Virus record (IMG/VR): IMGVR_UViG_3300022894_000002
Coordinates: 1 to 36,489 of that record
DNA length: 36,489 bases
DNA from: a virus
Lineage: Duplodnaviria; Heunggongvirae; Uroviricota; Caudoviricetes; Crassvirales
Strand: one strand, 5' to 3'
The notes beneath the pieces are model-generated. The model searched no databases. It saw nothing but the letters and a program-made list of their open reading frames with translations, and was not told where the DNA came from. Below are positions 1 through 24,148 of this stretch, piece by piece (positions within the stretch are counted from its first letter, which is position 1; each line of letters starts with the position of its first letter). Both the position numbers and the translations under genes were made by a program.

Positions 1-1602
1 TTTTTATTATTAGGAGGAACAGGTGTAGGTTATTCAGTTCAATTTAAACATATAGATAAACTACCTGAAATTAAAAAATCTACAAAATCTCAAAAATATT
101 TAGTTCAAGATAGTATTATAGGTTGGGCTGATGCAATTAAGCACTTAATGAAAAGTTATTTAGGAGAAAGAAATACTAAACCTAAATTTGATTTTTCTGA
201 TATAAGACCATTAGGTTCAAGATTAAAAACTGCTGGAGGAAAAGCTCCTGGTCCTGAACCATTAAAAAGATGTTTATTTGAAATTGAAAATATTTTAGAA
301 TCTAAAAATAATGGAGATAAATTAACTACATTAGAAGTTCATGATATTATTTGTCATTTAGCTGATAGTGTTCTTGCTGGTGGAATAAGAAGAGCAGCAC
401 TAATTTCATTATTTAGTGCTGATGATGAATTAATGTTAGGATGTAAATTTGGCAATTGGTGGGAATTAAATCCTCAAAGAGGTAGGGCTAATAATTCTGC
501 TGTTTTATTAAGACATAAAATTACTAAAACTTTCTTTATGAATTTATGGAAAAAAATAGAATTAAGTGGTTCTGGTGAACCTGGATTCTATTTTACTAAT
601 AATAGTGATTGGGGAACTAATCCATGTTGTGAAATAGCCCTAAGACCTTTTCAAATGTGTAATCTTTGTGAAGTTAATGTATCTAATATAGAATCACAAG
701 AAGATTTAAATAAAAGAGTATTAATAGCTTCATTCTTTGGAACTCTTCAAGCTTCTTATACTGATTTTCATTATTTAAGACCTATTTGGAAAAAAACTTG
801 TGAAAAAGATGCTTTAATTGGTATTGGTATGACTGGTATAGCTTCTATGGAAGTATTTAAGTATGATTTAGAACAAGCTTCATTATTTGCTAAAATAAAT
901 AATCAAGGTATAGCTCATAAAATTAATATTAATCCAGCAGCTAGAATTACTTGTGTTAAACCTTCAGGAACAACTAGTTGTGTTTTAGGTACTTCAAGTG
1001 GAATACATGCTTGGCATGATAAATTTTATATTAGAAGGATGCAAGTTTCTAAGAATGAAGATATTTATAAATATTTAATTAAAGAACATTCTTATCTACT
1101 TAAAGATCATTTATTAATTCCTAATTCAGCTGTAATTGAAATACCCATTAAAGCTCCTGAAGGATCTGTTTTAAGATATGAATCTGCTATAGATTTATTA
1201 GAAAGAGTTAAGAAAATTTCTGAAAACTGGATTAAACCTGGTCATATTTCTGGAGATAATTCACATAATGTTAGTGCTACTATTAGCATTGATAAAGATA
1301 GAATTTACTATGATTTATCTGAATATGATGAATTAAAGAAATCTTATGGTTGTGGTGAATGGATAAGAGTAGGTGAATGGATGTGGAAGAATAAAGAATT
1401 TTATAATGGATTAAGTTGTTTACCTTTTGATGGAGGAACTTATTCTCAAGCTCCTTTTGAAACTATTACTGAAGAAGAATATAATAAATTAACTAAACAA
1501 ATTAAATCTATTAATTTAAGTGAAATAATTGAAGAAGAAGATTATACTGATTTAAAAGGGGAATTAGCTTGTAGTGGACCTAATGGATGTGAAATAAAAT
1601 AA
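1..1602 (+). CDS. nrdJ: Class II (adenosylcobalamin-dependent, monomeric RTPR-type) ribonucleotide reductase, 5'-truncated by the window edge
   Basis: Frame +1 is open from base 1 (FLLLGGTGVGYSVQFKHIDKLPEI...), so the ATG at 148 is internal. Motifs: GGIRRAALISL, TNPCCEI (thiyl-radical Cys loop), CNLCEVN, TCVKPSGTTS and a C-terminal redox pair CSGPNGCEIK resembling the RTPR CxxxxC tail. Confidence 0.9.
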   Translation, partial: FLLLGGTGVGYSVQFKHIDKLPEIKKSTKSQKYLVQDSIIGWADAIKHLMKSYLGERNTKPKFDFSDIRPLGSRLKTAGGKAPGPEPLKRCLFEIENILESKNNGDKLTTLEVHDIICHLADSVLAGGIRRAALISLFSADDELMLGCKFGNWWELNPQRGRANNSAVLLRHKITKTFFMNLWKKIELSGSGEPGFYFTNNSDWGTNPCCEIALRPFQMCNLCEVNVSNIESQEDLNKRVLIASFFGTLQASYTDFHYLRPIWKKTCEKDALIGIGMTGIASMEVFKYDLEQASLFAKINNQGIAHKININPAARITCVKPSGTTSCVLGTSSGIHAWHDKFYIRRMQVSKNEDIYKYLIKEHSYLLKDHLLIPNSAVIEIPIKAPEGSVLRYESAIDLLERVKKISENWIKPGHISGDNSHNVSATISIDKDRIYYDLSEYDELKKSYGCGEWIRVGEWMWKNKEFYNGLSCLPFDGGTYSQAPFETITEEEYNKLTKQIKSINLSEIIEEEDYTDLKGELACSGPNGCEIK

Positions 1603-1603
1603 T

Positions 1604-1849
1604 ATGAAAAGAATTAAATTAACAAAACTATCAGATGATGCTTTTAATGGTAATCATCCAAATAATATTAATGAAGGATATACTAAAGAAGGTTATATGT
1701 TAATAGAACCAACTATAGGAGAAAATTTTAATCTTTATTATAGTAAAACAGAACCATTTTTTCATACTTCAATAGTTATTAAAGAATTAAATGAAAATAA
1801 TGAATTTAAAACATTATATTCTACTTATAAAATAGAATACTTAGACTAA
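1604..1849 (+). CDS. Hypothetical 81-aa phage protein (predicted small beta-rich domain)
   Basis: ORF starts 1 nt after the RNR stop and is TAATG-coupled to the next gene. No recognisable catalytic motif. Confidence 0.75.
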   Translation: MKRIKLTKLSDDAFNGNHPNNINEGYTKEGYMLIEPTIGENFNLYYSKTEPFFHTSIVIKELNENNEFKTLYSTYKIEYLD

Positions 1850-2190
1850 TGGAAGAAGGAAAGAAATTTGATAATAATAAATTACCTCTTGGAATTGTTA
1901 TAACACAACAATTTCCAAGAGCTTTAAAAGCTATTGCAGAAGTTAGTTTATATGGACACGAAAAATATGAATTAGATAATGATTGGGATAATTTTTCAAG
2001 AGTAGAAAATGCTGAAGAAAGATATTCTAATGCTATGTTTAGACATTATTTTGAAAAAAATTCAAATGATTTAGAGTCATTTAAAAGTCATTTGTCACAT
2101 GCAGCCTGGAATTTATTAGCAGAATTAGAAATTAAATTAAGAAAATTAGAAAATGATAATAATAAACCAGGAACAACAAAAAATAATTGA
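1849..2190 (+). CDS. dATP/dGTP diphosphohydrolase-domain (DUF5664-like) protein
   Basis: Family pattern G.KFDNNKLP...ALKAIAEVSLYGHEKY..DN..RV..AEERYSNAMFRH...D.ES.KSHLSHAAWNLL. Confidence 0.8.
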   Translation: MEEGKKFDNNKLPLGIVITQQFPRALKAIAEVSLYGHEKYELDNDWDNFSRVENAEERYSNAMFRHYFEKNSNDLESFKSHLSHAAWNLLAELEIKLRKLENDNNKPGTTKNN

Positions 2191-2458
2191 TTATTTAGTT
2201 TTATCAAATAATCATAACTATAATATAGTTAAAGCAGCAGAAGAATTTTCTGAATTGTGTACAGTTTTATTACAAAAGAATCTTAAAGATTATAAAGTTC
2301 CAGATCAAGAAGTAATTGATGAAATAGGAGATTGTATTATTAGATTAGAAATACTTAAAAAATTATTTAATCAAAAGAAAATACAAGAAAGAGTAGATTA
2401 TAAGCTAAGTAAATTTGAAGAGTACATTAAAGAAAATAAATATTTAAATCATATATAA
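2153..2458 (+). CDS. MazG-like all-alpha NTP pyrophosphohydrolase
   Basis: Acidic helices KAAEEFSEL and VIDEIGDCIIRLE match the ExxE...ExxD metal-binding pattern of the MazG superfamily. Overlaps the upstream ORF by 38 nt. Confidence 0.7.
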   Translation: MIIINQEQQKIIDYLVLSNNHNYNIVKAAEEFSELCTVLLQKNLKDYKVPDQEVIDEIGDCIIRLEILKKLFNQKKIQERVDYKLSKFEEYIKENKYLNHI

Positions 2459-2460
2459 TA

Positions 2461-2691
2461 ATGTTTACAAAAACAAATATAATAACAACATTAAATAATG
2501 CTACTAATAAAGCATTAGATATTTTTAATAAAACTATGACTGAGTTAAGTAGGATTAATACTTTAGCTCAAGAAAAAATAGATAGTAATCATGAAGAAAT
2601 AGGTAAATTAAATTTAGAAAATGAAGATCTAAATTCTTTATTAACTAAAAATGATAATACAATTAAGAGAATTAAAGGAATTATTGAATAA
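2461..2691 (+). CDS. Hypothetical 76-aa coiled-coil protein
   Basis: Heptad-like helical sequence; TAATG-coupled to the next gene. Confidence 0.7.
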   Translation: MFTKTNIITTLNNATNKALDIFNKTMTELSRINTLAQEKIDSNHEEIGKLNLENEDLNSLLTKNDNTIKRIKGIIE

Positions 2692-3533
2692 TGGAAATTA
2701 TAAAATATCCAGATAATACTTCTTATGTAAAAGTTAAGGAGTTTTTACCTGAAACAACATTTAGATTAAACAGTTATGAAGATTTATGGCATTTAAATCA
2801 ATATGTAGATGCTAGTTATAATTTTTGTAATACAAAATCAACTATTATTATACCTAATTTAATAGATGCTCAATCAGATAGGAGATTTGGTATTGGTGAA
2901 TCAAGTGGTTTAAAATTAGTATGTGATTTTTTAAATCAAATGAATGCTAATTTTAAAATATTTCATCCTCATAATCAAGAAGTAGTTGAAGCTTTAATAA
3001 ATAATTTAGAAATTATTGATAATGAGAAATTTATTAGGGAAGTTTTTTCAGAACTTTTAGAAGATAAAAGATATGATTTTGATTCAGAAGAATTAGAAAA
3101 TCAATTAATTTTAATGTCTTCTGATGCTGGTGGATTTAAACCTTTATCTAAACTTTGTGACAAACTTAGTTGGGAAGGTGAAATGTATTCTGCTTCTAAA
3201 GCTAGAAGTTGGGATGAAAAAAATGGTACTAAATTTATACAACAAATAGATAGAACAGATTTTAAAGGTAAAGACATACTTATAATTGATGATATTTGTG
3301 TATATGGAGGAACTTTTAAAGGTTTATCTAAATTACTTAAAGAAAGAAATTGTGGTAAATTATATTTAGCTGTTAGTCACATGACTGTACAAAATTTAGG
3401 AGAAGATTCTGTAACTAATTATTTTGATAGAGTATTTACAACTAATAGTAAATATGATTTTTATCAATATATAAATTGGAGTTCTGTAATTGAAAAAGAA
3501 ATTAAAAACTTAGAAATTATAAAATTATTTTAA
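2691..3533 (+). CDS. prs: Ribose-phosphate pyrophosphokinase-like protein (candidate Adps, ADPR-PP synthetase of NARP1)
   Basis: AQSDRRF loop, DAGG, PRPP-binding loop LIIDDICVYGGTF and KLYLAVSH. Lies next to a NAMPT-like gene. Confidence 0.85.
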   Translation: MEIIKYPDNTSYVKVKEFLPETTFRLNSYEDLWHLNQYVDASYNFCNTKSTIIIPNLIDAQSDRRFGIGESSGLKLVCDFLNQMNANFKIFHPHNQEVVEALINNLEIIDNEKFIREVFSELLEDKRYDFDSEELENQLILMSSDAGGFKPLSKLCDKLSWEGEMYSASKARSWDEKNGTKFIQQIDRTDFKGKDILIIDDICVYGGTFKGLSKLLKERNCGKLYLAVSHMTVQNLGEDSVTNYFDRVFTTNSKYDFYQYINWSSVIEKEIKNLEIIKLF

Positions 3534-3578
3534 ATGAAAGTATTACCAATATTAAACAGTGATAATTTATTAAAATAA
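3534..3578 (+). pseudogene. Dead remnant of the original 5' end of the NAMPT-like gene (MKVLPILNSDNLLK*)
   Basis: ATG immediately follows the prs stop. The first 10 codons match 4136-4165 (MRVLPILNAD) at 8/10 aa and 23/30 nt, then the frame diverges and stops at 3576-3578. Confidence 0.85.
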
Positions 3579-3579
3579 A

Positions 3580-3611
3580 TTTGTTTTATTGGATACATTT
3601 TATTATATTTG
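3580..3611 (+). promoter_or_regulatory. Bacteroidota sigma-A-type promoter (-33 TTTG / -7 TAnnTTTG)
   Basis: TTTG at 3580-3583, 20-nt spacer, TATATTTG at 3604-3611: exact consensus and spacing, 18 nt upstream of ATG 3630. Confidence 0.75.
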
Positions 3612-3629
3612 TATAAAATATATAAATGT

Positions 3630-4133
3630 ATGGAAGAAATTAAAACAAGAAAATGTTGTAAATGCTTAGAAATTAAGCTTTTAACTAAAGATTATTTTAC
3701 AGTTGATAAATGTGATAAAACAGGATTTACTTATTCATGTAAAATATGTAGAAGAATTAAACAAAAAGAGTGGAAATTAAATAATCCTGAAAAAATTAAA
3801 GCTTTAAATGATAAAAACGCTGCTAAAAGAAAGCTTTTCTATGATTCTCCAGAAGGTAAAATAAGCTCAAGAAGAGCACATTTAAAAAGAATGTATAACA
3901 TTACATTAGAAGAATATACTTTAAAATTAAAAGAACAAAATAATAAATGTAAAATTTGTTGTAGTGAAAATAGTTTTGATAGATATGGTGTATTAGCAGT
4001 GGACCATTGTCATACTACAGGAAACATTAGAGGATTACTTTGCTATAAATGCAATGTAGGATTAGGAAATTTTAATGATAATCAAGAATTATTAAAAAAA
4101 GCAATAAATTATTTAGAACAATATAAAAAATAA
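3630..4133 (+). CDS. Endonuclease VII-family (HNH-fold) homing endonuclease with N-terminal Cys4 Zn-finger
   Basis: CCKC...CKIC at the N-terminus; YNITLEEY...QNNKCKIC...LAVDHCHTTGNIRGLLCYKCNVGLG...LLKKAINYL. Start moved from TTG 3609, which lies inside the promoter -7 box, to the in-frame ATG 3630. Confidence 0.88.
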   Translation: MEEIKTRKCCKCLEIKLLTKDYFTVDKCDKTGFTYSCKICRRIKQKEWKLNNPEKIKALNDKNAAKRKLFYDSPEGKISSRRAHLKRMYNITLEEYTLKLKEQNNKCKICCSENSFDRYGVLAVDHCHTTGNIRGLLCYKCNVGLGNFNDNQELLKKAINYLEQYKK

Positions 4134-4135
4134 AT

Positions 4136-5638
4136 ATGAGAGTATTACCTATTTTAAATGCAGATAGTTACAAAATGCACCATTTTCAAATGTACCCAGA
4201 AGGTATGACTAAATTATATTCTAATATGACTCCTAGAAGTTATAACAGATTAGGATGTACTAAAAGTGTATGGTTTGGATTACAATATTACATTAAAGAA
4301 TATCTAATTAATCAATGGAATGAGTTATTCTTTAATAAACCTTTAGAAGATGTATTAAAAGAATATAAAAGATTTCATAAGTATTTTAGTTTTACTGATA
4401 TACCAACTGAACATATTGAAAAATTACATAAATTAGGTTATTTACCTTTAGAAATTAAAGCTTTAGAGGAAGGTAGTTTAGTTTTAGCAAGAATACCTTA
4501 TTATACAATAACTAATACTCATTCAGATCATGCTTGGTTAGTTAATTTTTTAGAAACTCAAATGAGTACAGTTATTTGGGATTTGACAACTAATGCTACT
4601 ATTAGTAGAATGTATAGAGAGTTACTTAATAAATATGCTTTAGAAACTACTGAAAGTACTGATGGAGTTCAATGGCAAGGACATGATTTTAGTCAAAGAG
4701 GAAGAAGTTCTGTTGAAAGTACTTTTAATCAAGCAGGTCATTTATTAAGTTTTACAGGTTCAGATACTATTCCAGCAGTATTAATGTTAGAAGAATATTA
4801 TGGAGGTAATATGGAAACTGAATTAATAGCTTCTAGTGTACCAGCAACTGAACATTCAGTTATGACTAGTTATGGTAAAGAAGATGAATTAGGTGCTTTT
4901 AAAAGATTATTACAACAATTTCCTACAGGAATATTATCAATAGTTAGTGATAGTTTTGATTTATGGAAAGTATGTACAGAGTATTTACCAACTTTAAAAG
5001 AACAAATATTAGCTAGAAATGGTAAATTAGTAATTAGACCTGATTCTGGAGATCCTGTAGATATTATTTGTGGAGATACTTTTAATATATATGGAGAATA
5101 TTTATCTCATGTAGATAAAGTTAATCCTTCATGTAAAGGAGTAATTGAACTTCTTTGGGATACATTTGGTGGAACTGTAAATAACCAAGGCTATAAAGTA
5201 TTAGATCCTCATATTGGAGCTATATATGGAGATTCTATAACTTTAGAAAGAGCTAAACAAATATGTGAAAAACTTAAAGCTAAAGGATTTGCTTCTACTA
5301 ATATTGTATTGGGGATAGGTTCTTATACTTTTAATTGTAATACTAGAGATTCATTAGGTATAGCAGTTAAATCTACTTATTGTGAAATTACTTCCCCAGT
5401 AACATCTACACAAGTAGAATCAAGAGAGATATTTAAAGATCCTATTACTGATGATGGTACTAAAAAGTCTGCTAAAGGTTTATTATGTGTAACTTTAGAT
5501 GATAATTTAGAAATGTGTTTGTTAGATCAAGTTAATTGGGAAACTGAGAAAAAAGGTTTATTACAAACAGTATTTTTAAATGGAAAATTAATTAAAGAAA
5601 CTAATTTACAAGAGATTAGAAATAGATTAAATAGTTAA
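4136..5638 (+). CDS. nadV: Nicotinamide phosphoribosyltransferase-like protein (candidate Namat of NARP1)
   Basis: NAMPT motifs in order: DSYK, HDFSQRG, GSDT, ATEHS, SIVSDSFD, IRPDSGDP, IYGDSIT, RDSLG.AVKST, KKSAKGLL. Confidence 0.92.
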   Translation: MRVLPILNADSYKMHHFQMYPEGMTKLYSNMTPRSYNRLGCTKSVWFGLQYYIKEYLINQWNELFFNKPLEDVLKEYKRFHKYFSFTDIPTEHIEKLHKLGYLPLEIKALEEGSLVLARIPYYTITNTHSDHAWLVNFLETQMSTVIWDLTTNATISRMYRELLNKYALETTESTDGVQWQGHDFSQRGRSSVESTFNQAGHLLSFTGSDTIPAVLMLEEYYGGNMETELIASSVPATEHSVMTSYGKEDELGAFKRLLQQFPTGILSIVSDSFDLWKVCTEYLPTLKEQILARNGKLVIRPDSGDPVDIICGDTFNIYGEYLSHVDKVNPSCKGVIELLWDTFGGTVNNQGYKVLDPHIGAIYGDSITLERAKQICEKLKAKGFASTNIVLGIGSYTFNCNTRDSLGIAVKSTYCEITSPVTSTQVESREIFKDPITDDGTKKSAKGLLCVTLDDNLEMCLLDQVNWETEKKGLLQTVFLNGKLIKETNLQEIRNRLNS

Positions 5639-5954: not shown

Positions 5955-5986
5955 AAACCCTGAATTTTTTAAGTTCAGGGTTTTTT
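5955..5986. terminator. Bidirectional intrinsic terminator between convergent gene blocks
   Basis: AAACCCTGAA (5955-5964) pairs with TTCAGGGTTT (5974-5983). A T-run follows on + (5981-5986) and a T-rich tract follows on -. Confidence 0.85.
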
Positions 5987-5987
5987 A

Positions 5988-8900
5988 TTAGTTTCTTTGT
6001 TCTTCTAAACTAACATCTTTTCTTCCAATTTTATATAATTCAAAAGCTGGTTTAGCTAATGGAGTTATATCAGCAAATTCTTTAAGAATTCTATTATGTC
6101 CTTTAGAAGATCCTTTTTTAATTGTATAATCTCCTGTATATAAAACTTTAGGAATTATATAAGTAGCTTGAATAATATCTCCAATTGTTTTAGATAAAGG
6201 AATTGCATTTTTACCTAATTGATTGATTTGTTCTGGGCTATAAAAGAAAGTTAAATCCCCTGATGCTCTATCTAATAAAGTTAAAGCTAATTTAATCTGA
6301 GGTAATCTTCTTCTTAATTTATCTTTATCATCATCTCCTCCATGTAAAAAAGCATATAACATAGTTAATGTTCCTATTGATATTAATTCAATAGCCATTT
6401 TTCTCATGTTATAAACTTCAGATTCAGTTAATTTACCTTCTTTTAATAATTTTTTAGCATTAATTAAAGGTAATAATAAATTTTCAAAAGCTTGTTTAGG
6501 ATTTTTCCAATTCTTTAATACTAACCGGTTAAATGTTTTATAAGATCCCTCTATATCAGCTTGAAGTCTATTATCATACTGTTTAGTATTAAATCTTGCT
6601 TCATAAGCAGCTGGAACCCATTTTCTAAATTGTGATATTAATCTAAATAAAACATTTTGTTGAAGTGTTGCAGCTTCTTTAACTGAATATCTACCATGAA
6701 TTTTTTGATTTAATCTTTGAACTTTATCAGATAATTGTTGTTTTTCCTTTTTATCAGCATTTTTATATTTATCAGTTAATTCTCCATTAGAAGTTAAATA
6801 ACTTTCTTTAATCATTACAGCTAATAGAGTTCTTGATTGTAAGAATTTTTCACCAGATGTTTGCATAGAATACATTATCTCTTGAATTCTATCAGTAGTT
6901 AATTTTTTAGTACCAATTTCTTCAATGTCTGATTTAAGTGAATAATCCATTAATTCTTGTAAAGGATTTAATTCCTCTAATAATTTATTCATTACAGAAT
7001 CTCTATCAAAATTTTGTTTAAAAAATATTTTAGAAGCCTGATGTAATTGTTTAGTATTAAAAAATTGTCCACCAATTGCTTCAATAGTATTTGAAATATC
7101 TCCAAATATCCAGTTAGTTAAAGACGTTATTGGACTTAATGAAATTCTTAAAAGTGAATTATATTTAAGTAACAAATCAATAGCTTTAGTACCATCAACT
7201 ACAGTTTGAACTGTATTACCATTTTCATCAGTAGTTTCACTTTTAACATATTGAAATTGTTCTAACTTCATATTACCCTTAACTTGCATATCTATAACTT
7301 TATCAATCATATTATACAAATTAGTTTTTCTTCCAGGAATAGTTAATTTAGGATTATTAGATGTCTTAAATTGCCTTTCAATATAATTACCATTAACAAT
7401 CTTATAAGTTAAGCTTTCTTGTAATAATCTTAATTTAGGTAATATATCAGACATTTCTTTCTGATTGTAAGCAAATTTACTAAACTCAAATAAACTAGTT
7501 CCTAAATCAGAAGATTTTTCAGAAGCTGGAATATTTTTATGATATTCTAATGGTACTACATCAGATAAATTCTCTTCTTCAAAACCTTCTTTAATAATTC
7601 TTTCTTTAATTATAGATAAAGATTTAATTTTAGATTTTAAATCAGTTTTTCTTATATTTGGAATAAATGATTTACCTAAGTCTATTGGAAGATCTTTTTG
7701 AGCTTCTTCCATCTTAGATACATAAAAATCATAAAATTGTTTTAATTCTGGTGTACTTTGAATTTTATTCCAATTAGGATTTTCTTTACCATCATCAAAA
7801 TAAGGTTGAACTAATTTTAAAGTATTATCACTTTCTTGAACAAATAATTTATAAGTATTTTCTAAACTAGCCCCATTTTTTTTAGCATAATCATTTAATA
7901 ATTTAACCTTTCTTTCAATTTCATTTTTAGTTCTTTTAGTAAAAGTTTCTACTTTATTTTGAACACTTTTAATTAATGAACCAATTGTTCTACCAATATA
8001 ATTAGCTAAATCTGATAAAGATCCTGTTCCTTCTATCCTTTTAGATATATCAGTATCTTGATTTTCTATATCTTCTAAAGTAGGTTTAACTTTCTCAGTA
8101 GCAAACTCTTGAACTTCTTCTACTTTTAATTCATCAATAAAAGGTTTTAATCTATTTAATAAATCAGCACTATCATCTCTTAATTTATCAAAGTTACTAA
8201 AAGTATTAATAACATCTATTGAATGTTCTATATTTTTAGCAGTATCTTTAGCTGAACCTTCTTCTAATTCAATTATAAATTCTTCTACTTTAGATAAAGT
8301 TTCTTCACCTAATTCTCTAAACAAATCTCTATTTTGTAAAGTTTTAGCAGTATTAAATTTTTCTTTTAATTCATCTAATTCTTTTTCTAATTCTTCATAT
8401 TTGTTAGTACCTTCTTGTAATTTATTTAAGTTATTAGTTAATCTTTTAATTCTATTAGAGAAGTATATTTCTTGTTTAGTAAAAGCTGATTCTTGTTTTT
8501 CTTCATTTTTATTAGATTTTTTAAATTGAATTTCTTCTAAATTTTTTAATTGATTATTATATTTAGTATTAATTTCATTTATTTTATTAAGTTCTTTTTG
8601 AGTTAATATATAAATTTGTTCTGGTTCAAATACTAAATATTCTATTTGACCATCTATATAAGGTAATTCTACACCATCACCGAGTAATCCCTCTTTTTCT
8701 AAACCTTCTATAATACTTCTATAAACATATTCTTTATGATGTCTTTCTGGAGTATCTTGTTGAATATCTATTTCAGTTAATTCTTGTATATTTAAAATTA
8801 CAGGATGTAAATTTTTACCATATAAATTAGCAATTCTCTTAGATGGTGTAAATGAAAATCCTAATTGTGAAATAGGAGCATTAAAATTTGAAGCTCTTTT

Positions 8901-20900: not shown

Positions 20901-20996
20901 ATCAGTGGCTCCTTGTATAGGAGTTTTATCTAAATATTGTTCATATAAAGATTTTTTTTTATTATCTTCAAATAATTTATCTAATAATTTACCCAT
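5988..20996 (-). CDS. 5002-aa virion-packaged RNA polymerase polyprotein (crAss-like vRNAP) with helicase, ART-like and two zincin domains
   Basis: GGDYDIDK catalytic motif (D2613-D2617, nt 13146-13160), preceded by YRIPTQG, DAQGWIT and GTQFRKL. HEAFH at H1319, GKGGTGKT at G3275, HEFSH at H3858, YHGS at H4020. Gly/Ala-rich hydrophobic stretches near the N-terminus. Follows the cargo and muzzle genes. Confidence 0.9.
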   Translation of the reverse strand: MGKLLDKLFEDNKKKSLYEQYLDKTPIQGATDIQLGQYGVGDSQYDTDITPGNVSELESIRGQRQSRTAKVANAIPRLISKVGTEVAKTPAYLYAMGEAVATDKTLAETLDNAWLNTLEGLDQKTKQEFAIYKPKSVTEGNLWDNITSTSFWTDEGVDGAGFLIAMLAPGMALRGANIAGNLSKVGVGANTAKNIELGAGALMNSALESAAEAKGLVDQLKPQLMKLVEEGKITQEEANQRLGEAGKNSFLQNMALIAGPNFLMQKNLLGRFIPSKTALSEVTDEAGNLLKPIQLQGKELANQYAKEIGTNLFSEGFIEEGGQFAIENYNKKLALGQTNSDFVKGILESYGEALTSTEGQKSIFLGSFLGGLGSGASNIGKAKKDFEGKSQLYDLMQSNFNGFDKSISDLYTKDKEGNLTSELNPVKVKNFMQDIVKEHLSSQLKDTYATLDNKEAYDYISNQEFTKFALPYLQQEGGLQLLNKHIDQLSKKLIDNEKNQRGVDTTLDEVKYITNLKLKGQKLQKVVNSINSTLKVDIPAETPLQQAKVNEFTNRLKSTAIQETSKQLFLNDRINNLNLELVELEMGLSKDIPQNKIEADKIKNQIEKYNNELKSSIEKYNKIFDKEEQKKAFNISNEVEEQEEKVSEKETKEAIKTDVKQFAERIKNGEVLSTPEDQEFYTNNSKEIEKELQRLKKEDLTKPSESNIDEENINERAIITTEEKESKKALDPFKSENGWDGITFLINGEKYGIKSVDDNKYTLKNIKNNKEVVLTSENLLQFASRDITPSQDRFYTYVRNTENVAGHKFLPVTKKNNPELYEELLKLQDDELDFNNEVARQHDKIDSIYLVLLDSSGNQIKVDNKPLFTYMTRPERIDKSEILSEDKAKLVQLREEILALKKGTNQTLIITDKSKGTPQFEPKVNGERQSNPLIGTLYDNKNEIKLELVTQEAGKDYGFLSNGQIANPGKLYALKGKIAIDLIPRKLNEQEVDKLTELLEKRLKGESNISKEIEKLIFFGIGKKGINNYTVAVKEDKLYLGKDIVLTLDIFNPTLVKAYLLNSGKTVHINNKYGFKDGYIDILGNKHDSYQDYLVLGDNPLFGTDLKPKSEIQFRNQYLIYNPELKSDNLVTSQPEVNTESKEEEIKPFPTEASNLDPRKSEIEKRRQEDISNIIEGSNSDDSWYELKVDHSKRNLVKEKLDGKYWNYNDLVTKINAKYDAELAALEEENKGPYTKNAEIKIRKPRSKEGDFDKKNRLASVVKDKSELTQQEINWFKNNFPNIPLEKVKGLIDEQAFGQFLSSGKVLLSDEAPTGTLYHEAFHTVTQLYLTDKEVNNLYNEAKERTELKDNLDIEELLAEDFAEYKKTGKILKDSPVRNTLFRKLINFIKDLLNLPAKSIQDIYRRLDKGFYKNKKRTNRNQFSKLNKALKDKSEKFTKDLLDGMDAIFFKTLFLNNKTVIDSFQYVDAALNRVHDVITDLYEDVNNDYNYTISEELQDYVYDNWEIISNKWLERMNSLGANLKDFDLTKDYQENIIEEDNLPSKDENESVDSDENIKERSGEAYQEANLTSAKSKMFNSSKFLIRSLVQKDSKNNDVLSELGLSLTVQFDKTYNYLLKELTGLGWNYNNYYNKISELTKVKPEFNQILTRLLAPGQAVTMEQIMLQNQFVQDFNKNKATSYITLIEGDKIYQVDATQQATVDRIKDKWQSNLRYNSKQNVEGRLIFDYSKLKGLGNIKYLEGLGFTFSKETIKELEDNKEFSDAVTAIRNYITSNNGDVTTFFSGKELSGRLSTLAQLEAEFTPDTVELSYINSENKTVYSIGYNNFLSIIKNTINRVSNLTELYQELPHLKSVTTEGSLWLNKMFDKDGNKREGVQINLNLQDGVKNKDNEDAASTRKLSIGDKLIQDINSTLLNGLTNYIRASDKATEHTLNLSGYGKNQKLPVSIDELKDGFDSNTLKEIFRGYFKSEFKRIALFKINNLGKNIDQYQKAGNKWTIFSSILNSENKKFLENEIDELKLQDLDSIQLNNELDLTAQAFSETLDKDVIKFFEGYLFEQNKQLEENRINLTQGISSELKQYNLDQLVRALIVTDMINSIEQTKLFIGDMAFYKDLFKRTSSASGTKESCRVDNELHDWLNNNNKRLDKKLADGKINVSIFNDSTQQSDYIDEYIDSLVSSGINPELAKEQMKAYSEMDEGDAQGWITIDEFREFSIRLGKWDKYKEDIFDKLQNNKELTPGELSYFLPLKAQYFGPQDYKGLYAPAYHKYSLMPLIPQLVKGRNLEVLLKNMTENQIGYALFKTGSKVGTPVNSKGEANNFYTDKNNGEINTSNWTKQVISYKYLGLQQKSSEPKEKVIFGTQFRKLLFSNLYESGLVNEGFTGSKQLFEEYNKIIDDLIKVEKDKLIKELGLNPNNYTSEDVTKLVKLLQQEAKDRALPDNLIESLQSELIDGKYLLKYKFDSMVNKPKIDSMLMAIINSRLIRQKINGDALVQGASSGFEKTGNRKAGSNSSLKFYTNKGENGTTTHAECMVAMNKNYKPLLDKYGSLEALNQAIKDNKVDKRLLQLVGYRIPTQGLNSIDMLEIKEFLPETSGTLIVLPTEIVAKSGGDYDIDKMNIFRPKMDKEGNYIQTPENRIIEIATQILSNPTNFNALITPNSTKILTDLVDEIRWIEHKNSKPKYTGDITQYKKEVKDELNNIKYTEQLKLTTKTKQFQKFMLAKDMIGIAAIQNTHHIISQLVGLTLNKTYYIVDKKKPGQLIEKNRVISFEHNRGNNNTIDLGKTSDVEGKNRISEVISQIINATVDAAKDPFLFDLNMTLETLSTYTYLIRIGVPFDTVVYFMKQPIITKYLTELSVNQSMFLGSSNYVAKEQAKAIVKNEYKTNELIDISKVYNSEELKSYLIKENQQSEEFKANQLHILDKFLEYQDQSSMLSDAIKSTNYDTKGLGKNYGTSILQKDLEDKVFKDNFVNGIDRIKNNTFIGAFDQVDFSLSAYGQFYDIYNNKDLSNTVQNLINKINPFGDENKIKLRTLIENDLIQYITQNYGYNNITELQDKLFKTESVAKELLRIKNNPSNPDEIRIGKNMLIEELYPLINQSKQEKDNIKIYSRRYDTFKANQLTESFNELRQLDPVLAKNIMDVGIIQSGLNNSPITYLGLIPYDYYNELVKQSFLNFNKKNGAEDLYKFQALFLRENPKGIPKQGWIYGKNYDVNSKEDYVVIPETPVEVIKPVIANKYELFPGVFANKDQEIAIDKINNFLNSSDQEFLLAGKGGTGKTSIVNKAISEFKGNIVGATVADEARGILQESMKGKTTKTIASLLGLVPDFRQDSGELYFRVRNSEEEKEFRNNFKRDPIESADLVIIDESSMITNEILDLLLKLKRPTAKLIFMGDNHQLPPIGDINSPIFERLENTDNYSELTIRMRQKEESPILPVTDIYADNIDLLEQGKGVKKPTFTRIEKFDESTNQGVKYIKNNKELITEFVKDLKEGVNSKHVITVVARNETARLVSDAIRNELLDNPSEDYQIGEIIRVNQPYIVDKEIVLANGFKGKIIERENFKLLDKYEGYRLTVEFDSVDSKGNPIKAKKIIETLSQKDLPNFKKILSELGKDIKSRGLDFKSEKRAFATELYPLKEKIVDIGYNYAITSHKVQGSTYEITYVMEDDIMSFPDNTNGLTINRMMYTAISRPKTKLVIYSPSQEFTKEEYKSNPDIQYKKLEVQAIPLREDTKALYKEYNLLTNDGKIKIVPDTEKTKTWVKTLNQSPYYSFRLRNTPGGLRILIYPKQSNQLDLQFNREEGETEISKEVMQTLLDKLKDKLGIDYELTNESGDPYYSNNKVVIPTGNLTLETPLHEFSHGLFDSLEKFNPKLFNKLIKDILATEEGKQIEETVERLYPEDDNTNKQLKEIGVRALTEVAKKNINPKTGKPFLEVIKRLFYALKQMFRSIFGKDIKITDLNENTTLQELADMLTIGTGKIDLILINSREQIEINRTQELEKIVTDIFPNTQVKQILYHGSNENIEIFDKKKRASNFNAPISQLGFSFTPSKRIANLYGKNLHPVILNIQELTEIDIQQDTPERHHKEYVYRSIIEGLEKEGLLGDGVELPYIDGQIEYLVFEPEQIYILTQKELNKINEINTKYNNQLKNLEEIQFKKSNKNEEKQESAFTKQEIYFSNRIKRLTNNLNKLQEGTNKYEELEKELDELKEKFNTAKTLQNRDLFRELGEETLSKVEEFIIELEEGSAKDTAKNIEHSIDVINTFSNFDKLRDDSADLLNRLKPFIDELKVEEVQEFATEKVKPTLEDIENQDTDISKRIEGTGSLSDLANYIGRTIGSLIKSVQNKVETFTKRTKNEIERKVKLLNDYAKKNGASLENTYKLFVQESDNTLKLVQPYFDDGKENPNWNKIQSTPELKQFYDFYVSKMEEAQKDLPIDLGKSFIPNIRKTDLKSKIKSLSIIKERIIKEGFEEENLSDVVPLEYHKNIPASEKSSDLGTSLFEFSKFAYNQKEMSDILPKLRLLQESLTYKIVNGNYIERQFKTSNNPKLTIPGRKTNLYNMIDKVIDMQVKGNMKLEQFQYVKSETTDENGNTVQTVVDGTKAIDLLLKYNSLLRISLSPITSLTNWIFGDISNTIEAIGGQFFNTKQLHQASKIFFKQNFDRDSVMNKLLEELNPLQELMDYSLKSDIEEIGTKKLTTDRIQEIMYSMQTSGEKFLQSRTLLAVMIKESYLTSNGELTDKYKNADKKEKQQLSDKVQRLNQKIHGRYSVKEAATLQQNVLFRLISQFRKWVPAAYEARFNTKQYDNRLQADIEGSYKTFNRLVLKNWKNPKQAFENLLLPLINAKKLLKEGKLTESEVYNMRKMAIELISIGTLTMLYAFLHGGDDDKDKLRRRLPQIKLALTLLDRASGDLTFFYSPEQINQLGKNAIPLSKTIGDIIQATYIIPKVLYTGDYTIKKGSSKGHNRILKEFADITPLAKPAFELYKIGRKDVSLEEQRN
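8600..8990 (-). other. ADP-ribosyltransferase-like (ART-PolyVal-type) domain within the giant ORF
   Basis: LYHGS...F...LGFSFTPS..IA..YG...VILNI...DGV...IEYLVFEPEQIYIL, the pattern of polyvalent-protein ART domains. Confidence 0.72.
9150..9540 (-). other. Zincin-like metallopeptidase domain 2 (HEFSH) within the giant ORF
   Basis: ETPLHEFSHGLF (9411-9425) followed by KEIGVRAL and FLEVIKRLFYALKQMF, similar in layout to domain 1. Confidence 0.65.
9895..11290 (-). other. SF1B Dda/RecD-like helicase domain within the giant ORF
   Basis: Q motif DQEIAI, I GKGGTGKT (11151-11174), Ib KTIASLLG, II IIDESSM, III GDNHQLPPI, IV LTIRMRQ, V YAITSHKVQGSTY, VI MYTAISRP. Confidence 0.9.
12400..14700 (-). other. 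Two-barrel RNA polymerase catalytic region within the giant ORF (boundaries approximate)
   Basis: DYDID corresponds to the DFDID motif of Cellulophaga phage phi14:2 gp66. YRIPTQ lies about 35-40 aa upstream. Confidence 0.85.
16780..17160 (-). other. Zincin-like metallopeptidase domain 1 (HEAFH) within the giant ORF
   Basis: GTLYHEAFHTV (HEAFH at 17028-17042) followed by IEELLAEDFAEY, which supplies a candidate third Glu ligand. Confidence 0.78.
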
Positions 20997-22756
20997 TAAT
21001 TTGCTCTATTTTTAGATACTTCTGTTATTCCAGATTTTAATAATCCAGATTTCATTAATTTTTTTACTTCTAATTCTCTAATTTCTTCTAATGTAACTTT
21101 TTCTGAATTAACTCCATCTGTTAATACATATTCCCATTCAGGTTGTCCATTTTTATGTAATTTAGGTTTTACATCAATTATAAATCCATCTCCTAAATTT
21201 ACTTTTGCTGGTGCCAAAGATCTCCTTGCTTCATTTAATGCTTGTGAACCTTTAAATATATCCTGCATATTAGCATCAGGACTTATTAATACTCTTCTTG
21301 TATTTCCATTTTCATCTGGTACTTCAACATAATAAGCTCCCGCAACAGGTCCAGCTTGTGTAAATCCACCAATTCCTTTTTCTAATACTTTATTAAAATC
21401 TTCTTCAGTAATATCTAATTCATTTAATACTTCATCAAGGGTTCCATTAGATGTTCTTCCTTTTCCATCCCATAAATAGAAATTCCTTCCTTGTTTATCT
21501 TTAACTATACTTTTACCAATATCTTCTGAAGCATTTCCTGATATAGAATATAATTTACCAGATTCATTTGTTACAGATTTTTTATTTAATCTATAAACCT
21601 CAATAGTTTCTTTTGGATTTAAATTTTTAAATTCAGGATTGTTTATCTTTAATTGATTTATAAAGTCAGTTTGTTCTTTTAATTTTTGAGTATTTTCAGT
21701 TTTGTTTTTATTAGTTATAATTGGTGCATCATTATATAATGATGCTGATGTTCTTGTTACTGTTGGTTGATTATATGAAACTTTTAATGATCCATCTTTA
21801 TTAAATTCAAAATCCTTTGTTTCATCTTCAAATAAAGCATCTTGATTAATTCCTTCTGATTGTCTTGAAGTTGGTAATAATGGTTCTTCTATTTGTTTAG
21901 GGGCTTTAGATGTATAACTTCTACCTTGTTTTTGAGATTCTATATTTTTAGAATAATAACCTGGATATGAATTAACTAAATTTTCAACAATTTCATCATT
22001 AGTTAAACCTGCATTTTTTAATTTGTCATATCTAACAGATTGTTTATTAAATATTCCTTCACTTCCTTCAACTAAAGATTTAGCTAATTTTCTTACTTTA
22101 TCTCTTGTTATTTGTTCTTTAGATTGACTATTAACTGTACTATAATCAGTAAAAGAACCATCTGCATTAGGTACTCTATTCCAAGTTTCTTTTTCTAATT
22201 CTTTATCTAAATCTGATTTAATTCCAGAATACCAATCTTTAAAATCTTCTGTATAAGTTATAGGAGTTAATCCTTCATAATGTTTATCAAAGTCATCTAA
22301 ACTATAATTTGGGTTAATTCTATTCCAACTTTTAGTTTGAGGATTCCAACCTTGAGCCAATCCATTATCTAAAAATCCTGGATTATCTTTTAACATTTGT
22401 TTTACTTGAGGTGTATAAGAAGCATCTCTCTTAACTAATTGAACTTCTGGATTAGTATTAAAATGGTTTATTAAAGTTAAAGCTCTTCTAGAAGCATCTC
22501 TACTATTTAATTTACCAGTAGCTAATTCTTCAGAAATTTTATTAGCTTCTTGATTATAAGCTTGATTTAATCTTTGTGCCTCTAAATTAGTAGAATAACC
22601 TGGTTGAACATTAAAAGCATTTTTAGCTTGTTCAATACCAGCTAAAGCTTGATTATCTTCATTAACCATATCTTGTTGCATCTTATATATAAGATTAAGA
22701 TCTTGAGGAACAAAATCTGTTATATAAGGTTGACTACTTGCGTTAAAATATCTCAT
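20996..22756 (-). CDS. Putative internal virion (cargo/ejection) protein, 586 aa
   Basis: N-terminal YITDFVPQDLNLIY-type motif typical of crAss-like cargo proteins. Sits between the cargo-1-like gene and the vRNAP; TAATG-coupled to the vRNAP. Confidence 0.65.
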   Translation of the reverse strand: MRYFNASSQPYITDFVPQDLNLIYKMQQDMVNEDNQALAGIEQAKNAFNVQPGYSTNLEAQRLNQAYNQEANKISEELATGKLNSRDASRRALTLINHFNTNPEVQLVKRDASYTPQVKQMLKDNPGFLDNGLAQGWNPQTKSWNRINPNYSLDDFDKHYEGLTPITYTEDFKDWYSGIKSDLDKELEKETWNRVPNADGSFTDYSTVNSQSKEQITRDKVRKLAKSLVEGSEGIFNKQSVRYDKLKNAGLTNDEIVENLVNSYPGYYSKNIESQKQGRSYTSKAPKQIEEPLLPTSRQSEGINQDALFEDETKDFEFNKDGSLKVSYNQPTVTRTSASLYNDAPIITNKNKTENTQKLKEQTDFINQLKINNPEFKNLNPKETIEVYRLNKKSVTNESGKLYSISGNASEDIGKSIVKDKQGRNFYLWDGKGRTSNGTLDEVLNELDITEEDFNKVLEKGIGGFTQAGPVAGAYYVEVPDENGNTRRVLISPDANMQDIFKGSQALNEARRSLAPAKVNLGDGFIIDVKPKLHKNGQPEWEYVLTDGVNSEKVTLEEIRELEVKKLMKSGLLKSGITEVSKNRAN

Positions 22757-22759
22757 TTA

Positions 22760-24148
22760 TTATTGATTAAATACTGATTTAATACCTACTTCATAAGGAA
22801 CATAAGTTCCATTTTTTTCCCAAATCATTTCTCCATTTCCATCTCTGGTTAATTTATAACCATTTCTAGACATCAAAGATACTAAATCTTTTTGATTATT
22901 CCTAGAACTTTTTTCATTATTTATTGAACCTATCTTAGAACTCATATCTGACAAGCCTTTTGAAACAGCAGATCTAGCTGCATCAGTTTCTTGTTGTCTT
23001 GCAATAGCTTCTTGCATTTGAATACCTGCATTTTGAGAACCTGTTTGATTAACTATTCCTGTATTAATTTTATTATAATCTGATTTAATACCAGCTCTAC
23101 CCATTCCTCTAGTTATTCCTTCTTTACCAGTTAAACTATTCATTTGAGCTAAATATTCTCCAGAACTTGTTGCACTATTTCTAATAGCATTTTTAGCATT
23201 ATTAAAAGTAGTACTTGTAGTATTATTAAAACCAGTAATAGCAGGATTAGGATTAGCTAAATAAGGGTTAACTCTTTGAAAATCAACAGGATCTCCTCCT
23301 TTAACTCCTTGTAAAATGTTATAAGCATCTCCAGCTAATTGAGGTATAATATTTCCATAATTAGGTTTATTAGATATAGGATTGATACTTTGATTATCTG
23401 TAACATTTGAAGTTATAGGTATATTAGGAGTATTAATATTATTGTTATTATTAAAAGTTGGTTGAATTAATCCACTTCCAGAACTTACTGTTGGATTTGA
23501 AAAAATAGGTTCTGTTGAACCATCTAAATTAATAACTCCATTATCAGGAACCATAGCATTATTAAATCTTAAATCATTCATTAATAGTGCATTAGCTCTA
23601 GTATCACTTAATGGGTTATTAGGATCAAAATTATTTAAATATCCTCCTTTAGCATATTTCTTTTTTAATTTTCCACCACACATATATTTATTTGTTATAT
23701 CACTTAACATTAATGATTTTTTCATATTTTCTTGTTGATTACTTAATTTTTCTAATTCTAACTTTTTACCCATAGCATCTATTTTATCATTATCTCTAAA
23801 GTATTTTTTATCTATAGATTTACTTTTATTTGCAAAAGTTTGTTTTTTATTATAAGGAAGATTATTAGAGAATACAAAATCATTAATTATTGTTTCACCA
23901 TTCTCAATTTCATTATTATTAGATAATTGAATTCCACCTTCTGAATGTTCTAAACCTTTAGCTTGTATTAATTTACCTCCGTTCATAAATTGATTTTGTA
24001 CAAAGTTACCCGCTTTACTTCCTAACATACCTCCAATAGAAGTACCTATACCAGGAGCTATAAAACTCCCTAAAGCCATCCCTCCTATTGAACCTAGTGT
24101 AGAACCTAATTCTCCTCCTTGTTGATATTTATATGTTTTATTTTTCAT
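22760..24148 (-). CDS. Putative cargo protein 1-like ejection protein with glycine zipper, 462 aa
   Basis: Gly-zipper GSTLGSIGGMALGSFIAPGIGTSIGGMLG, four [YF]xxGGxL motifs and GLEHSEGG...EIENGET. Immediately downstream of the muzzle gene. Confidence 0.7.
   Translation of the reverse strand: MKNKTYKYQQGGELGSTLGSIGGMALGSFIAPGIGTSIGGMLGSKAGNFVQNQFMNGGKLIQAKGLEHSEGGIQLSNNNEIENGETIINDFVFSNNLPYNKKQTFANKSKSIDKKYFRDNDKIDAMGKKLELEKLSNQQENMKKSLMLSDITNKYMCGGKLKKKYAKGGYLNNFDPNNPLSDTRANALLMNDLRFNNAMVPDNGVINLDGSTEPIFSNPTVSSGSGLIQPTFNNNNNINTPNIPITSNVTDNQSINPISNKPNYGNIIPQLAGDAYNILQGVKGGDPVDFQRVNPYLANPNPAITGFNNTTSTTFNNAKNAIRNSATSSGEYLAQMNSLTGKEGITRGMGRAGIKSDYNKINTGIVNQTGSQNAGIQMQEAIARQQETDAARSAVSKGLSDMSSKIGSINNEKSSRNNQKDLVSLMSRNGYKLTRDGNGEMIWEKNGTYVPYEVGIKSVFNQ

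Follow-up and report, generated by a model that had tools for sequence, protein, structure and literature searches.

A predicted 5002-residue Crassvirales cargo protein that fuses the orthologues of phi14:2 gp67, gp66 and gp65

Among human gut phages, crassviruses are the most abundant group. The packing, ordered ejection and activation of their huge protein cargo are unresolved, because that cargo is invisible in the cryo-electron microscopy atlas. In Cellulophaga phage phi14:2, three large proteins, gp67, gp66 and gp65, are annotated in the phage record as structural proteins detected by proteomics, and gp66 is an injected early RNA polymerase (RNAP; Drobysheva et al., preprint). Fused crassvirus cargo, including virion RNAP polyproteins, is already known in the literature. 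Here we describe a 5002-residue open reading frame (ORF) on a 36,489-nucleotide stretch of DNA (the window), which covers positions 1 to 36,489 of the 103,491-bp IMG/VR record IMGVR_UViG_3300022894_000002. The phage is an uncultured member of the Crassvirales. The predicted protein joins the counterparts of all three phi14:2 proteins with a helicase, two zincin metallopeptidase domains and an ADP-ribosyltransferase (ART) domain, an exact domain set that none of 56 giant relatives was seen to have in one chain.

Fused proteins of gut crAss phages in RefSeq include cr118_1 gp14 (YP_010110531.1, 4946 residues) and cr50_1 gp059 (YP_010110216.1, 4774 residues). Like the protein described here, they unite a gp67-like part, a first zincin (HEAFH), an RNAP (DFDID) and a C-terminal superfamily 1 (SF1) helicase in a single ORF, but in both phages the gp65-like part is encoded on its own by the following gene (1667 and 1386 residues, respectively), with a pair of cysteines (Cys) at the junction, and Pfam detects neither an ART nor a second zincin in them. 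Polyvalent proteins, which include the ART-bearing virion RNAP of Roseovarius Plymouth podovirus 1, are likewise giant and virion-delivered, and combine an RNAP with anthrax-lethal-factor-related zincins and ART-PolyVal domains (Iyer, Burroughs, Anand, de Souza, Aravind 2017, PMC5512222). Their RNAP, however, is an N4/T7-like single-subunit enzyme, whereas the one here is two-barrel and QDE-1-like, and crAss phages are unmentioned in that study. The virion RNAP of coliphage N4, gp50, is ejected through the tail and also consists of an N-terminal domain, a polymerase and a C-terminal region that opens with an HExxH domain (PMC13434306). It differs in having an unrelated polymerase fold and neither helicase nor ART; the resemblance is architectural only.

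Three cargo modules in one reading frame

The predicted 5002-residue protein is a collinear fusion of the orthologues of phi14:2 gp67, gp66 and gp65 in their usual gene order. A first-pass annotation, made by a model from the sequence alone, had proposed that three ejected proteins of split phages are fused here, and the collinear matches bear this out. Residues 40-634 aligned with residues 49-666 of gp67 (BLASTP, E=1e-55, 28% identity), residues ~2077-3200 matched gp66 (PDB 6VR4) in two segments spanning its residues 863-2021 (phmmer, E=1.7e-46), and residues 4480-4921 matched residues 856-1343 of gp65 (E=2e-9). The module borders, at about residues 1200-1220 and 3680-3715, coincide with the gene borders of split relatives, which places the helicase in the polymerase module, and the second zincin and the ART in the gp65-like module. 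By these alignments the protein consists of a gp67-like module (residues 1-~1210), a module of zincin 1, RNAP and helicase (~1220-3700), and a gp65-like module with zincin 2, ART, a coiled region and a helical C-terminal domain (~3700-5002). Phage phi14:2 shares the modules and their order, its DxDxD motif aligns, its proteins are nearly Cys-free, and its gp65 also has a zincin (HEIMH at residue 245) and a C-terminal element of a hydrophobic helix plus acidic residues. It differs in encoding three genes with terminal Cys pairs, in lacking the helicase, zincin 1 and ART, and in an identity to the giant protein of only 21-28%.

The RNAP module is, as judged from alignment, an orthologue of phi14:2 gp66, the two-barrel crAss-like type of virion RNAP. 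All 12 relatives aligned keep the aspartates D2613, D2615 and D2617, and the motif has the three aspartates and the isoleucine or valine at position 4 that DFDxD requires. A tblastn search with the middle part of the protein found crAss-like phages only, all at <30% identity. The RNAP portion stands between the gp67-like and gp65-like parts at the end of the structural operon, as expected for the gp66 type. We also considered a T7-like single-subunit core of the N4-like (Schitoviridae) kind and rejected it; the RNAP matched the two-barrel gp66 only and no T7/N4-type family. Sequence searches of Pfam, PHROGs and the PDB returned nothing for residues 1-1700, nor did PHROGs for the RNAP piece. 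The linkers between domains are long, of low complexity and unconserved.

Features at either end of the chain also follow phi14:2. The hydrophobic glycine- and alanine-rich N-terminal region of the first-pass annotation was recovered, as glycine and alanine make up 20-21% of residues 1-400 versus 6-13% elsewhere. So was its hydrophobic segment in the helical C-terminal region: the two most hydrophobic 19-residue windows of the whole protein (Kyte-Doolittle) are residues 160-178 and 4867-4885. The first is conserved in phi14:2 gp67 as well as throughout the family. The second, with the acidic cluster behind it, aligns to a hydrophobic helix and acidic cluster in gp65, with G4887, D4889 and D4890 conserved, and relatives are 35-58% identical in this gp65-like C-terminal module.

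A fused frame on a single metagenome-derived contig might also arise if lost stops or frameshifts, introduced by assembly or sequencing, had merged three genes, all the more as most crAss phages split this region. Translation gave a single 15-kb frame without internal stops, as first annotated; it begins with ATG and has a one-base overlap with the stop codon of the gene before it. In DNA this rich in A+T, a run of 5002 stop-free codons excludes a chance origin. Both G+C content (0.23-0.27 along the ORF, 24% overall) and skew are uniform, so that a chimeric join is not indicated, and an identical protein is present in a public protein collection. In that public collection we identified 56 giant relatives of 3.2-5.45 thousand residues, 17 of which, independent of the present record, are fused across both junctions. 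With the present protein this makes 18 triple fusions, a number that rules out a sequencing artefact. Whereas 34 of 39 unfused giants have a Cys at the gene end, neither this protein nor any other triple fusion has one (0/18 in all). Thus, we consider an artificial merger exceedingly improbable.

The 17 triple-fusion relatives and the RefSeq polymerase-helicase giants agree with the earlier statement that fusions occur in some crAss-like phages. The survey of virion RNAP loci that had been suggested alongside it showed that giant fusions recur, but the same full domain set was found in none of the 56 relatives (0/56): none has a gp65-like C-terminus together with the helicase, zincin 2 and ART in a single protein. 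As giant fusions are common in the clade, the architecture is less unusual than the first-pass annotation implied. Examples of triple fusions are P0019 (5136 residues, NCBI), the one among the 17 that also has the helicase, and P0015 (5322 residues), which has zincin 2 and ART copies; in both, as here, the two junctions are fused, the core is 36-57% identical and the junction Cys are absent. Across 80 IMG/VR loci the usual layout was a gp67-like-zincin 1-RNAP protein plus a separate zincin 2/ART/gp65-like protein, with an ART in about a dozen. Relatives have other inserts, among them DUF7831, a histidine phosphatase within the gp67-like part and, following the RNAP, an oxygenase of the AlkB-like kind, and precomputed Pfam hits add NADAR, AAA_33 (kinase-like) and an intein.

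Three further observations concern RNAP genes of other phages. In P0034 (4571 residues), Hint and homing-endonuclease Pfam hits (PF05203, PF05204, PF14528) suggest an intein within a giant RNAP fusion. In cr108_1 (NC_055878.1; 15138-15429 of our locus L001) the RNAP is annotated as two coding sequences, gp054 and gp053, with ~290 nucleotides between them. The second begins within the catalytic motif (...YDIDK), so that the interruption falls at the active site; it might reflect an intron, a frameshift or a split made in annotation. In IMG/VR sample 3300045988 (loci L064-L092), the RNAP region falls into many short ORFs under table 11, a pattern that would fit the reassignment of stop codons known from certain crAss lineages of the gut.

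Table 1. Positions of the giant ORF, its predicted modules, domains and motifs, and adjacent features in the window.
Feature	Residues and details	Window position	Strand	Basis
Whole fused cargo ORF	5002 residues; stop codon included	5988..20996	-	ORF listing and translation
gp67-like N-terminal module	1-~1210	17367..20996	-	BLASTP; end mapped from split relative L018
Moderately hydrophobic glycine/alanine-rich segment	160-178	20463..20519	-	Kyte-Doolittle 1.33
INAKYDAELAALE copy 1, end of gp67-like module	1215-1227	17316..17354	-	Motif search
Zincin 1	1250-1480; HEAFH 1319-1323; conserved Glu 1334, 1341, 1356	16557..17249	-	Alignments, hhalign
Two-barrel virion RNAP module	~1500-3215	11352..16499	-	phmmer vs 6VR4
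Catalytic DYDID	2613-2617	13146..13160	-	Aligned to gp66 DFDID 1361-1365
SF1B Dda/RecD-like helicase	~3240-3705	9882..11279	-	Pfam, PHROG, PDB, motifs
Zincin 2	3790-3990; HEFSH 3858-3862; Glu 3912	9027..9629	-	Homologues, AF2, VIA
ART-PolyVal-like ADP-ribosyltransferase domain	4017-4129; His 4020, Glu 4119	8610..8948	-	PF18760, Protein Atlas, alignments
Degenerate copy 2, INTKYNNQLKNLE, between ART and C-terminal module	4142-4154	8535..8573	-	Motif search
gp65-like helical C-terminal module	4160-5002	5991..8519	-	BLASTP and relatives
Conserved hydrophobic helix, then conserved HGGDDD acidic cluster	4867-4885	6342..6398	-	Kyte-Doolittle 1.49
Hairpin with 13-bp stem, between convergent genes, directly 3' of giant ORF stop		5955..5983	.	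Hairpin
586-residue ORF	0 Cys	20996-22756	-	ORF and Cys count
462-residue ORF	1 Cys; glycine-rich hydrophobic start	22760-24148	-	ORF and Cys count

Helicase, zincin and ADP-ribosyltransferase domains

All the domains called in the first-pass annotation (RNAP, SF1 helicase, two zincins and ART) held, and its motif positions were exact: HEAFH at 1319, DYDID at 2613, Walker A GKGGTGK at 3275, HEFSH at 3858, YHGS at 4019 and IELISIGTL at 4869. Its comparison with polyvalent proteins was apt, with RNAP, helicase, two zincins and ART in one ORF of the structural operon. The helicase, of superfamily 1B (SF1B), matched the Pfam families AAA_30 (68.2 bits, cut-off 27) and AAA_19 (56.9 bits), with UvrD_C_2 slightly below its cut-off (26.1 versus 27.4 bits). 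It also matched PHROG 325 (Dda-like, E=8e-61) and the SF1B structures 9kwf and 8jx6 in the PDB. Motifs I, Ia, II, III, V and VI follow in order at residues 3275, 3298, 3366, 3396, 3653 and 3688, and the domain comes immediately after the RNAP in this protein, as it does in at least 10 relatives and the RefSeq proteins of cr50_1 and cr118_1.

For zincin 2 we found 506 homologues, mostly close to the N-terminus of proteins of 1.2-3.2 thousand residues, in which H3858, E3859, H3862 and E3912 are invariant. Its AlphaFold2 (AF2) model had a pLDDT of 82-95 over the domain, and the best VIA matches were the Certhrax N-domain, anthrax lethal factor (LF, 6.5) and PPEP (5.6-5.8), with Z of 5.6-6.8 overall. 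Foldseek with a model of zincin 2 plus ART gave no PDB match at E<=0.001, and its weak matches were enriched in zincins. On the model, zincin 2 is predicted to have an LF/PPEP-like fold and to be a zincin of the lethal-factor-like type with HExxH+E. Iyer et al. have linked the metallopeptidases of polyvalent proteins to anthrax lethal factor (PMC5512222). In zincin 1 the H, E and H of HExxH do not vary across the 12 full-length and 30 domain sequences compared, and a PDB search with its profile matched PPEP only, none of the matches being significant. The two zincins aligned to each other by hhalign (E=3.4e-5, probability 72%) with their HExxH and glutamate columns in register, and by this profile comparison they are homologous. 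In crAss001 gp47 (6120-13145 of our locus L213), the zincin HExxH stands at residue 2157 of 2341, at the C-terminal end of a gp67-like protein and not at the start of the RNAP; thus, the split point relative to zincin 1 varies between lineages.

The ART domain alone scored 37.7 bits against PF18760 (gathering cut-off 31.2), and 28.3 bits when searched within a 1902-residue piece. Among its 30 Protein Atlas neighbours, 23 belonged to the ART-PolyVal family set. With a local profile, further giant RNAP proteins and also stand-alone gp65-like proteins were found to contain this domain, with the aligned motifs VYHG[ST], G-x-[Y/S/F]-F-[ST] and E-[YF]-x-V-F-E-P-E-Q. Neither the ART profile nor the single sequence matched anything in the PDB, and a word-indexed homologue search with the ART alone returned no homologue. 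Structure prediction domain by domain, as proposed with the first-pass annotation, gave a confident fold for zincin 2 (AF2), but no confident model of the ART fold. A Prs-like and NAMPT-like gene pair for salvage of nicotinamide adenine dinucleotide (NAD+), at 2691-5638 (+), is convergent with the gene that encodes this putatively NAD+-consuming ART.

Terminal cysteines and a module-end motif

The giant protein contains two Cys (0.04%), compared with 1.8-2.9% in the products of neighbouring metabolic genes, and the median of the giant family is 0.027%. This near absence matches the proven virion proteins of phi14:2 and crAss001. The few Cys of the family follow a rule that is new here, and of which we found no mention in the literature accessible to search. 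Giants that end after the RNAP or helicase have a Cys within their last five residues in 34 of 39 cases, often the sole Cys of the protein, and stand-alone gp65-like proteins have one at residues 2-7 in 130 of 150, where the chance estimate is <1. A C-terminal Cys was seen in none of the 18 triple fusions, eight of which are entirely Cys-free. In the full set of loci analysed, we counted 68 neighbouring pairs of large, Cys-poor ORFs with a Cys on either side of the junction, and no Cys pair was found where smaller upstream cargo genes meet the gp67-like gene. The four Cys in the 5398 residues of the phi14:2 trio are gp67 C1797, which ends that protein, C3 and C2179 of the 2180-residue gp66, and gp65 C3. 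In crAss001 the corresponding residues are gp47 C2339 (of 2341), gp50 C5 and C2404 (of 2412), and gp49 C5. The rule is simple, and its statistics are overwhelming: terminal Cys pairs, one C-terminal upstream and one at residues 3-6 downstream, are confined to splits in the chain.

We looked for other sources of these residues. The gp47 gene lies on the opposite strand and crAss001 nevertheless follows the pattern, which excludes a nucleotide-level cause at the gene junction, translational coupling included. Split inteins were rejected because the Cys lie 1-8 residues from the protein ends and leave no room for intein halves. Virions of crAss001 are rich in inter-subunit disulfides (PMC10172136). 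The distribution suggests that terminal Cys pairs chain the three cargo proteins head-to-tail in the virion, and that fusion swaps these disulfides for peptide bonds.

A second recurrent element is the 13-residue motif INAKYDAELAALE, of which the giant protein has one canonical and one degenerate copy (Table 1). In the relative P0169 a canonical copy immediately follows the ART, and the motif is also present in phi14:2 gp67 (residue 1339) and in many relatives, with up to five per protein, embedded in otherwise unconserved low-complexity linkers. A degenerate DNA pattern located it in at least 119 IMG/VR contigs, where a few would be expected by chance, and all 84 instances examined were in frame within large Cys-poor ORFs. 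Its synonymous sites are conserved beyond codon bias (ATC 70% vs 9% background, CTA 51% vs 10%, and site-specific GCT or GCA), which suggests constraint at both the nucleotide and the protein level. The element may serve as a signal for processing or docking, or else as a linker at which recombination exchanges modules. The string itself was not found in a literature search.

These observations can be drawn together into one joint model, which we advance tentatively and lean slightly against as a whole. The trio would leave the capsid as one covalent thread, from which the other Cys have been purged to permit unfolding. In split phages the disulfides would be released in the reducing cytoplasm; in this clade, zincin 1 would release the peptide bonds, and INAKYDAELAALE would signal module ends for processing or recombination.

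Fate of the fused chain and its meaning for crassvirus cargo

We consider it probable that the 5002-residue protein is a virion-packaged cargo protein of a divergent Crassvirales phage that joins three RNAP-associated cargo proteins and acts as follows. Several copies would be packed in the capsid and expelled unfolded, N-terminus first, ahead of the DNA, and the ejected protein would refold inside the cell. The RNAP would then transcribe early genes, with the fused 5'-3' helicase providing its single-stranded template, and the ART would modify a host target using NAD+. Fusion by peptide bonds probably hard-wires the head-to-tail chain that split phages seem to form through terminal Cys. Later cutting of the chain is about an even call; if it occurs, zincin 1, just downstream of junction 1, would be the best candidate.

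Several points weigh against this explanation. The phi14:2 gp66 functions without a fused helicase, and the matches to zincin folds are modest (Z 5.6-6.8). In the ART, His 4020 and Glu 4119 of the H-Y-D/E triad (strands 1, 2 and 5) are in place, but a serine (GFSFT) occupies the strand-2 tyrosine position, a position that is variable among relatives, and the AF2 model of this domain is poor (pLDDT 57), with a best VIA Z of 4.4 and matches to PARP16 (Z 3.6) and the anti-CRISPR protein 6kyf (Z 3.5). The disulfide link is deduced solely from sequence statistics, and none is reported for the cargo of crAss001, which is unresolved in the structure concerned (PMC10172136). The association of zincin 1 with fusion at junction 1, set out below, is uncorrected for phylogeny. 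The CheckV completeness of the IMG/VR record is only 74%.

An alternative, favoured in the first-pass annotation, is that the protein is a self-processing polyprotein; Iyer et al. 2017 (PMC5512222) and Drobysheva et al. have proposed processing of this kind. The zincins would cut at the module junctions after synthesis, packaging or ejection, leaving three separate proteins (gp67-like, RNAP-helicase, and gp65-like/ART) to act as the phi14:2 trio does. Both zincins retain HExxH and the downstream glutamate, and both lie shortly after a junction, close to where their module starts. Zincin 1 was present in 74 of 79 RNAP proteins fused at junction 1, compared with 6 of 14 split ones (Fisher p=2.7e-5, kinship ignored), and nearly all stand-alone gp67-like proteins lack a zincin. 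Searches of the genome for an S77 or S78 prohead protease found neither, in keeping with self-processing. Zincin 2, however, was about as frequent in fused proteins (12/24) as in split proteins, and no site is conserved at junction 2. Zincins are also kept in split proteins that need no cut, such as phi14:2 gp65 and crAss001 gp47. The N4 virion RNAP is found intact in virions, which counts against self-processing. It, too, has an HExxH domain (PMC13434306). On this evidence we place self-processing just short of an even chance.

The protein might instead remain uncut, as a tethered machine analogous to the N4 virion RNAP. Its gp67-like part would sit at the ejection channel or membrane, the RNAP-helicase would hang on a flexible cytoplasmic tether, the gp65-like part would regulate or anchor, and the zincins would be effectors or regulators. 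In the N4 polymerase (~3500 residues), whose C-terminal domain has HExxH in its first subdomain, a linker anchors the RNAP to the membrane (PMC13434306). That study itself asks whether the three crassvirus proteins match the N4 parts, and the protein described here has its parts in that order. The long, unconserved linkers would suit a tether, and the recurrence of both fusions and splits among family members suggests that they tolerate linkage. The comparison is an analogy only, because the RNAP folds are unrelated (two-barrel versus T7-like). Moreover, split phages would come apart once their disulfides were reduced in the cytoplasm, suggesting that separation is the normal end state, and the association between zincin 1 and fusion also weighs against an uncut chain. 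We regard permanent tethering as possible but somewhat doubtful.

Channel formation by the giant protein, part of the first-pass annotation, was unsupported, as Bayfield et al. (PMC10172136) assign that role to two smaller upstream cargo proteins of crAss001, gp45 and gp46. The 586- and 462-residue ORFs upstream of the giant ORF are, by position only, likely counterparts of these two, and BLASTP found no similarity between them and phi14:2 gp68 and gp69. At the other end of the giant ORF, the hairpin is a likely candidate for a two-way terminator. A promoter scan within the giant ORF found fewer sites than in shuffled sequences, which lends no support to reading the conserved 39-nucleotide element as an internal promoter.

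The main value of the giant gene is comparative, and lies in its module order, its helicase-polymerase link and the terminal-Cys rule to which it leads. As a 'Rosetta stone' the gene fixes the order gp67-like, RNAP, gp65-like. The fusion ties an SF1B helicase to a polymerase of a type that prefers single-stranded templates in vitro, and so supports cooperation between helicase and polymerase. It also shows that the ART and other effector domains occupy defined slots in the cargo. The redox-cleavable cargo chain suggested by the terminal Cys is a concrete model that can be tested in the cultured phages phi14:2 and crAss001, and would bear on how crassviruses pack, eject and activate their cargo.

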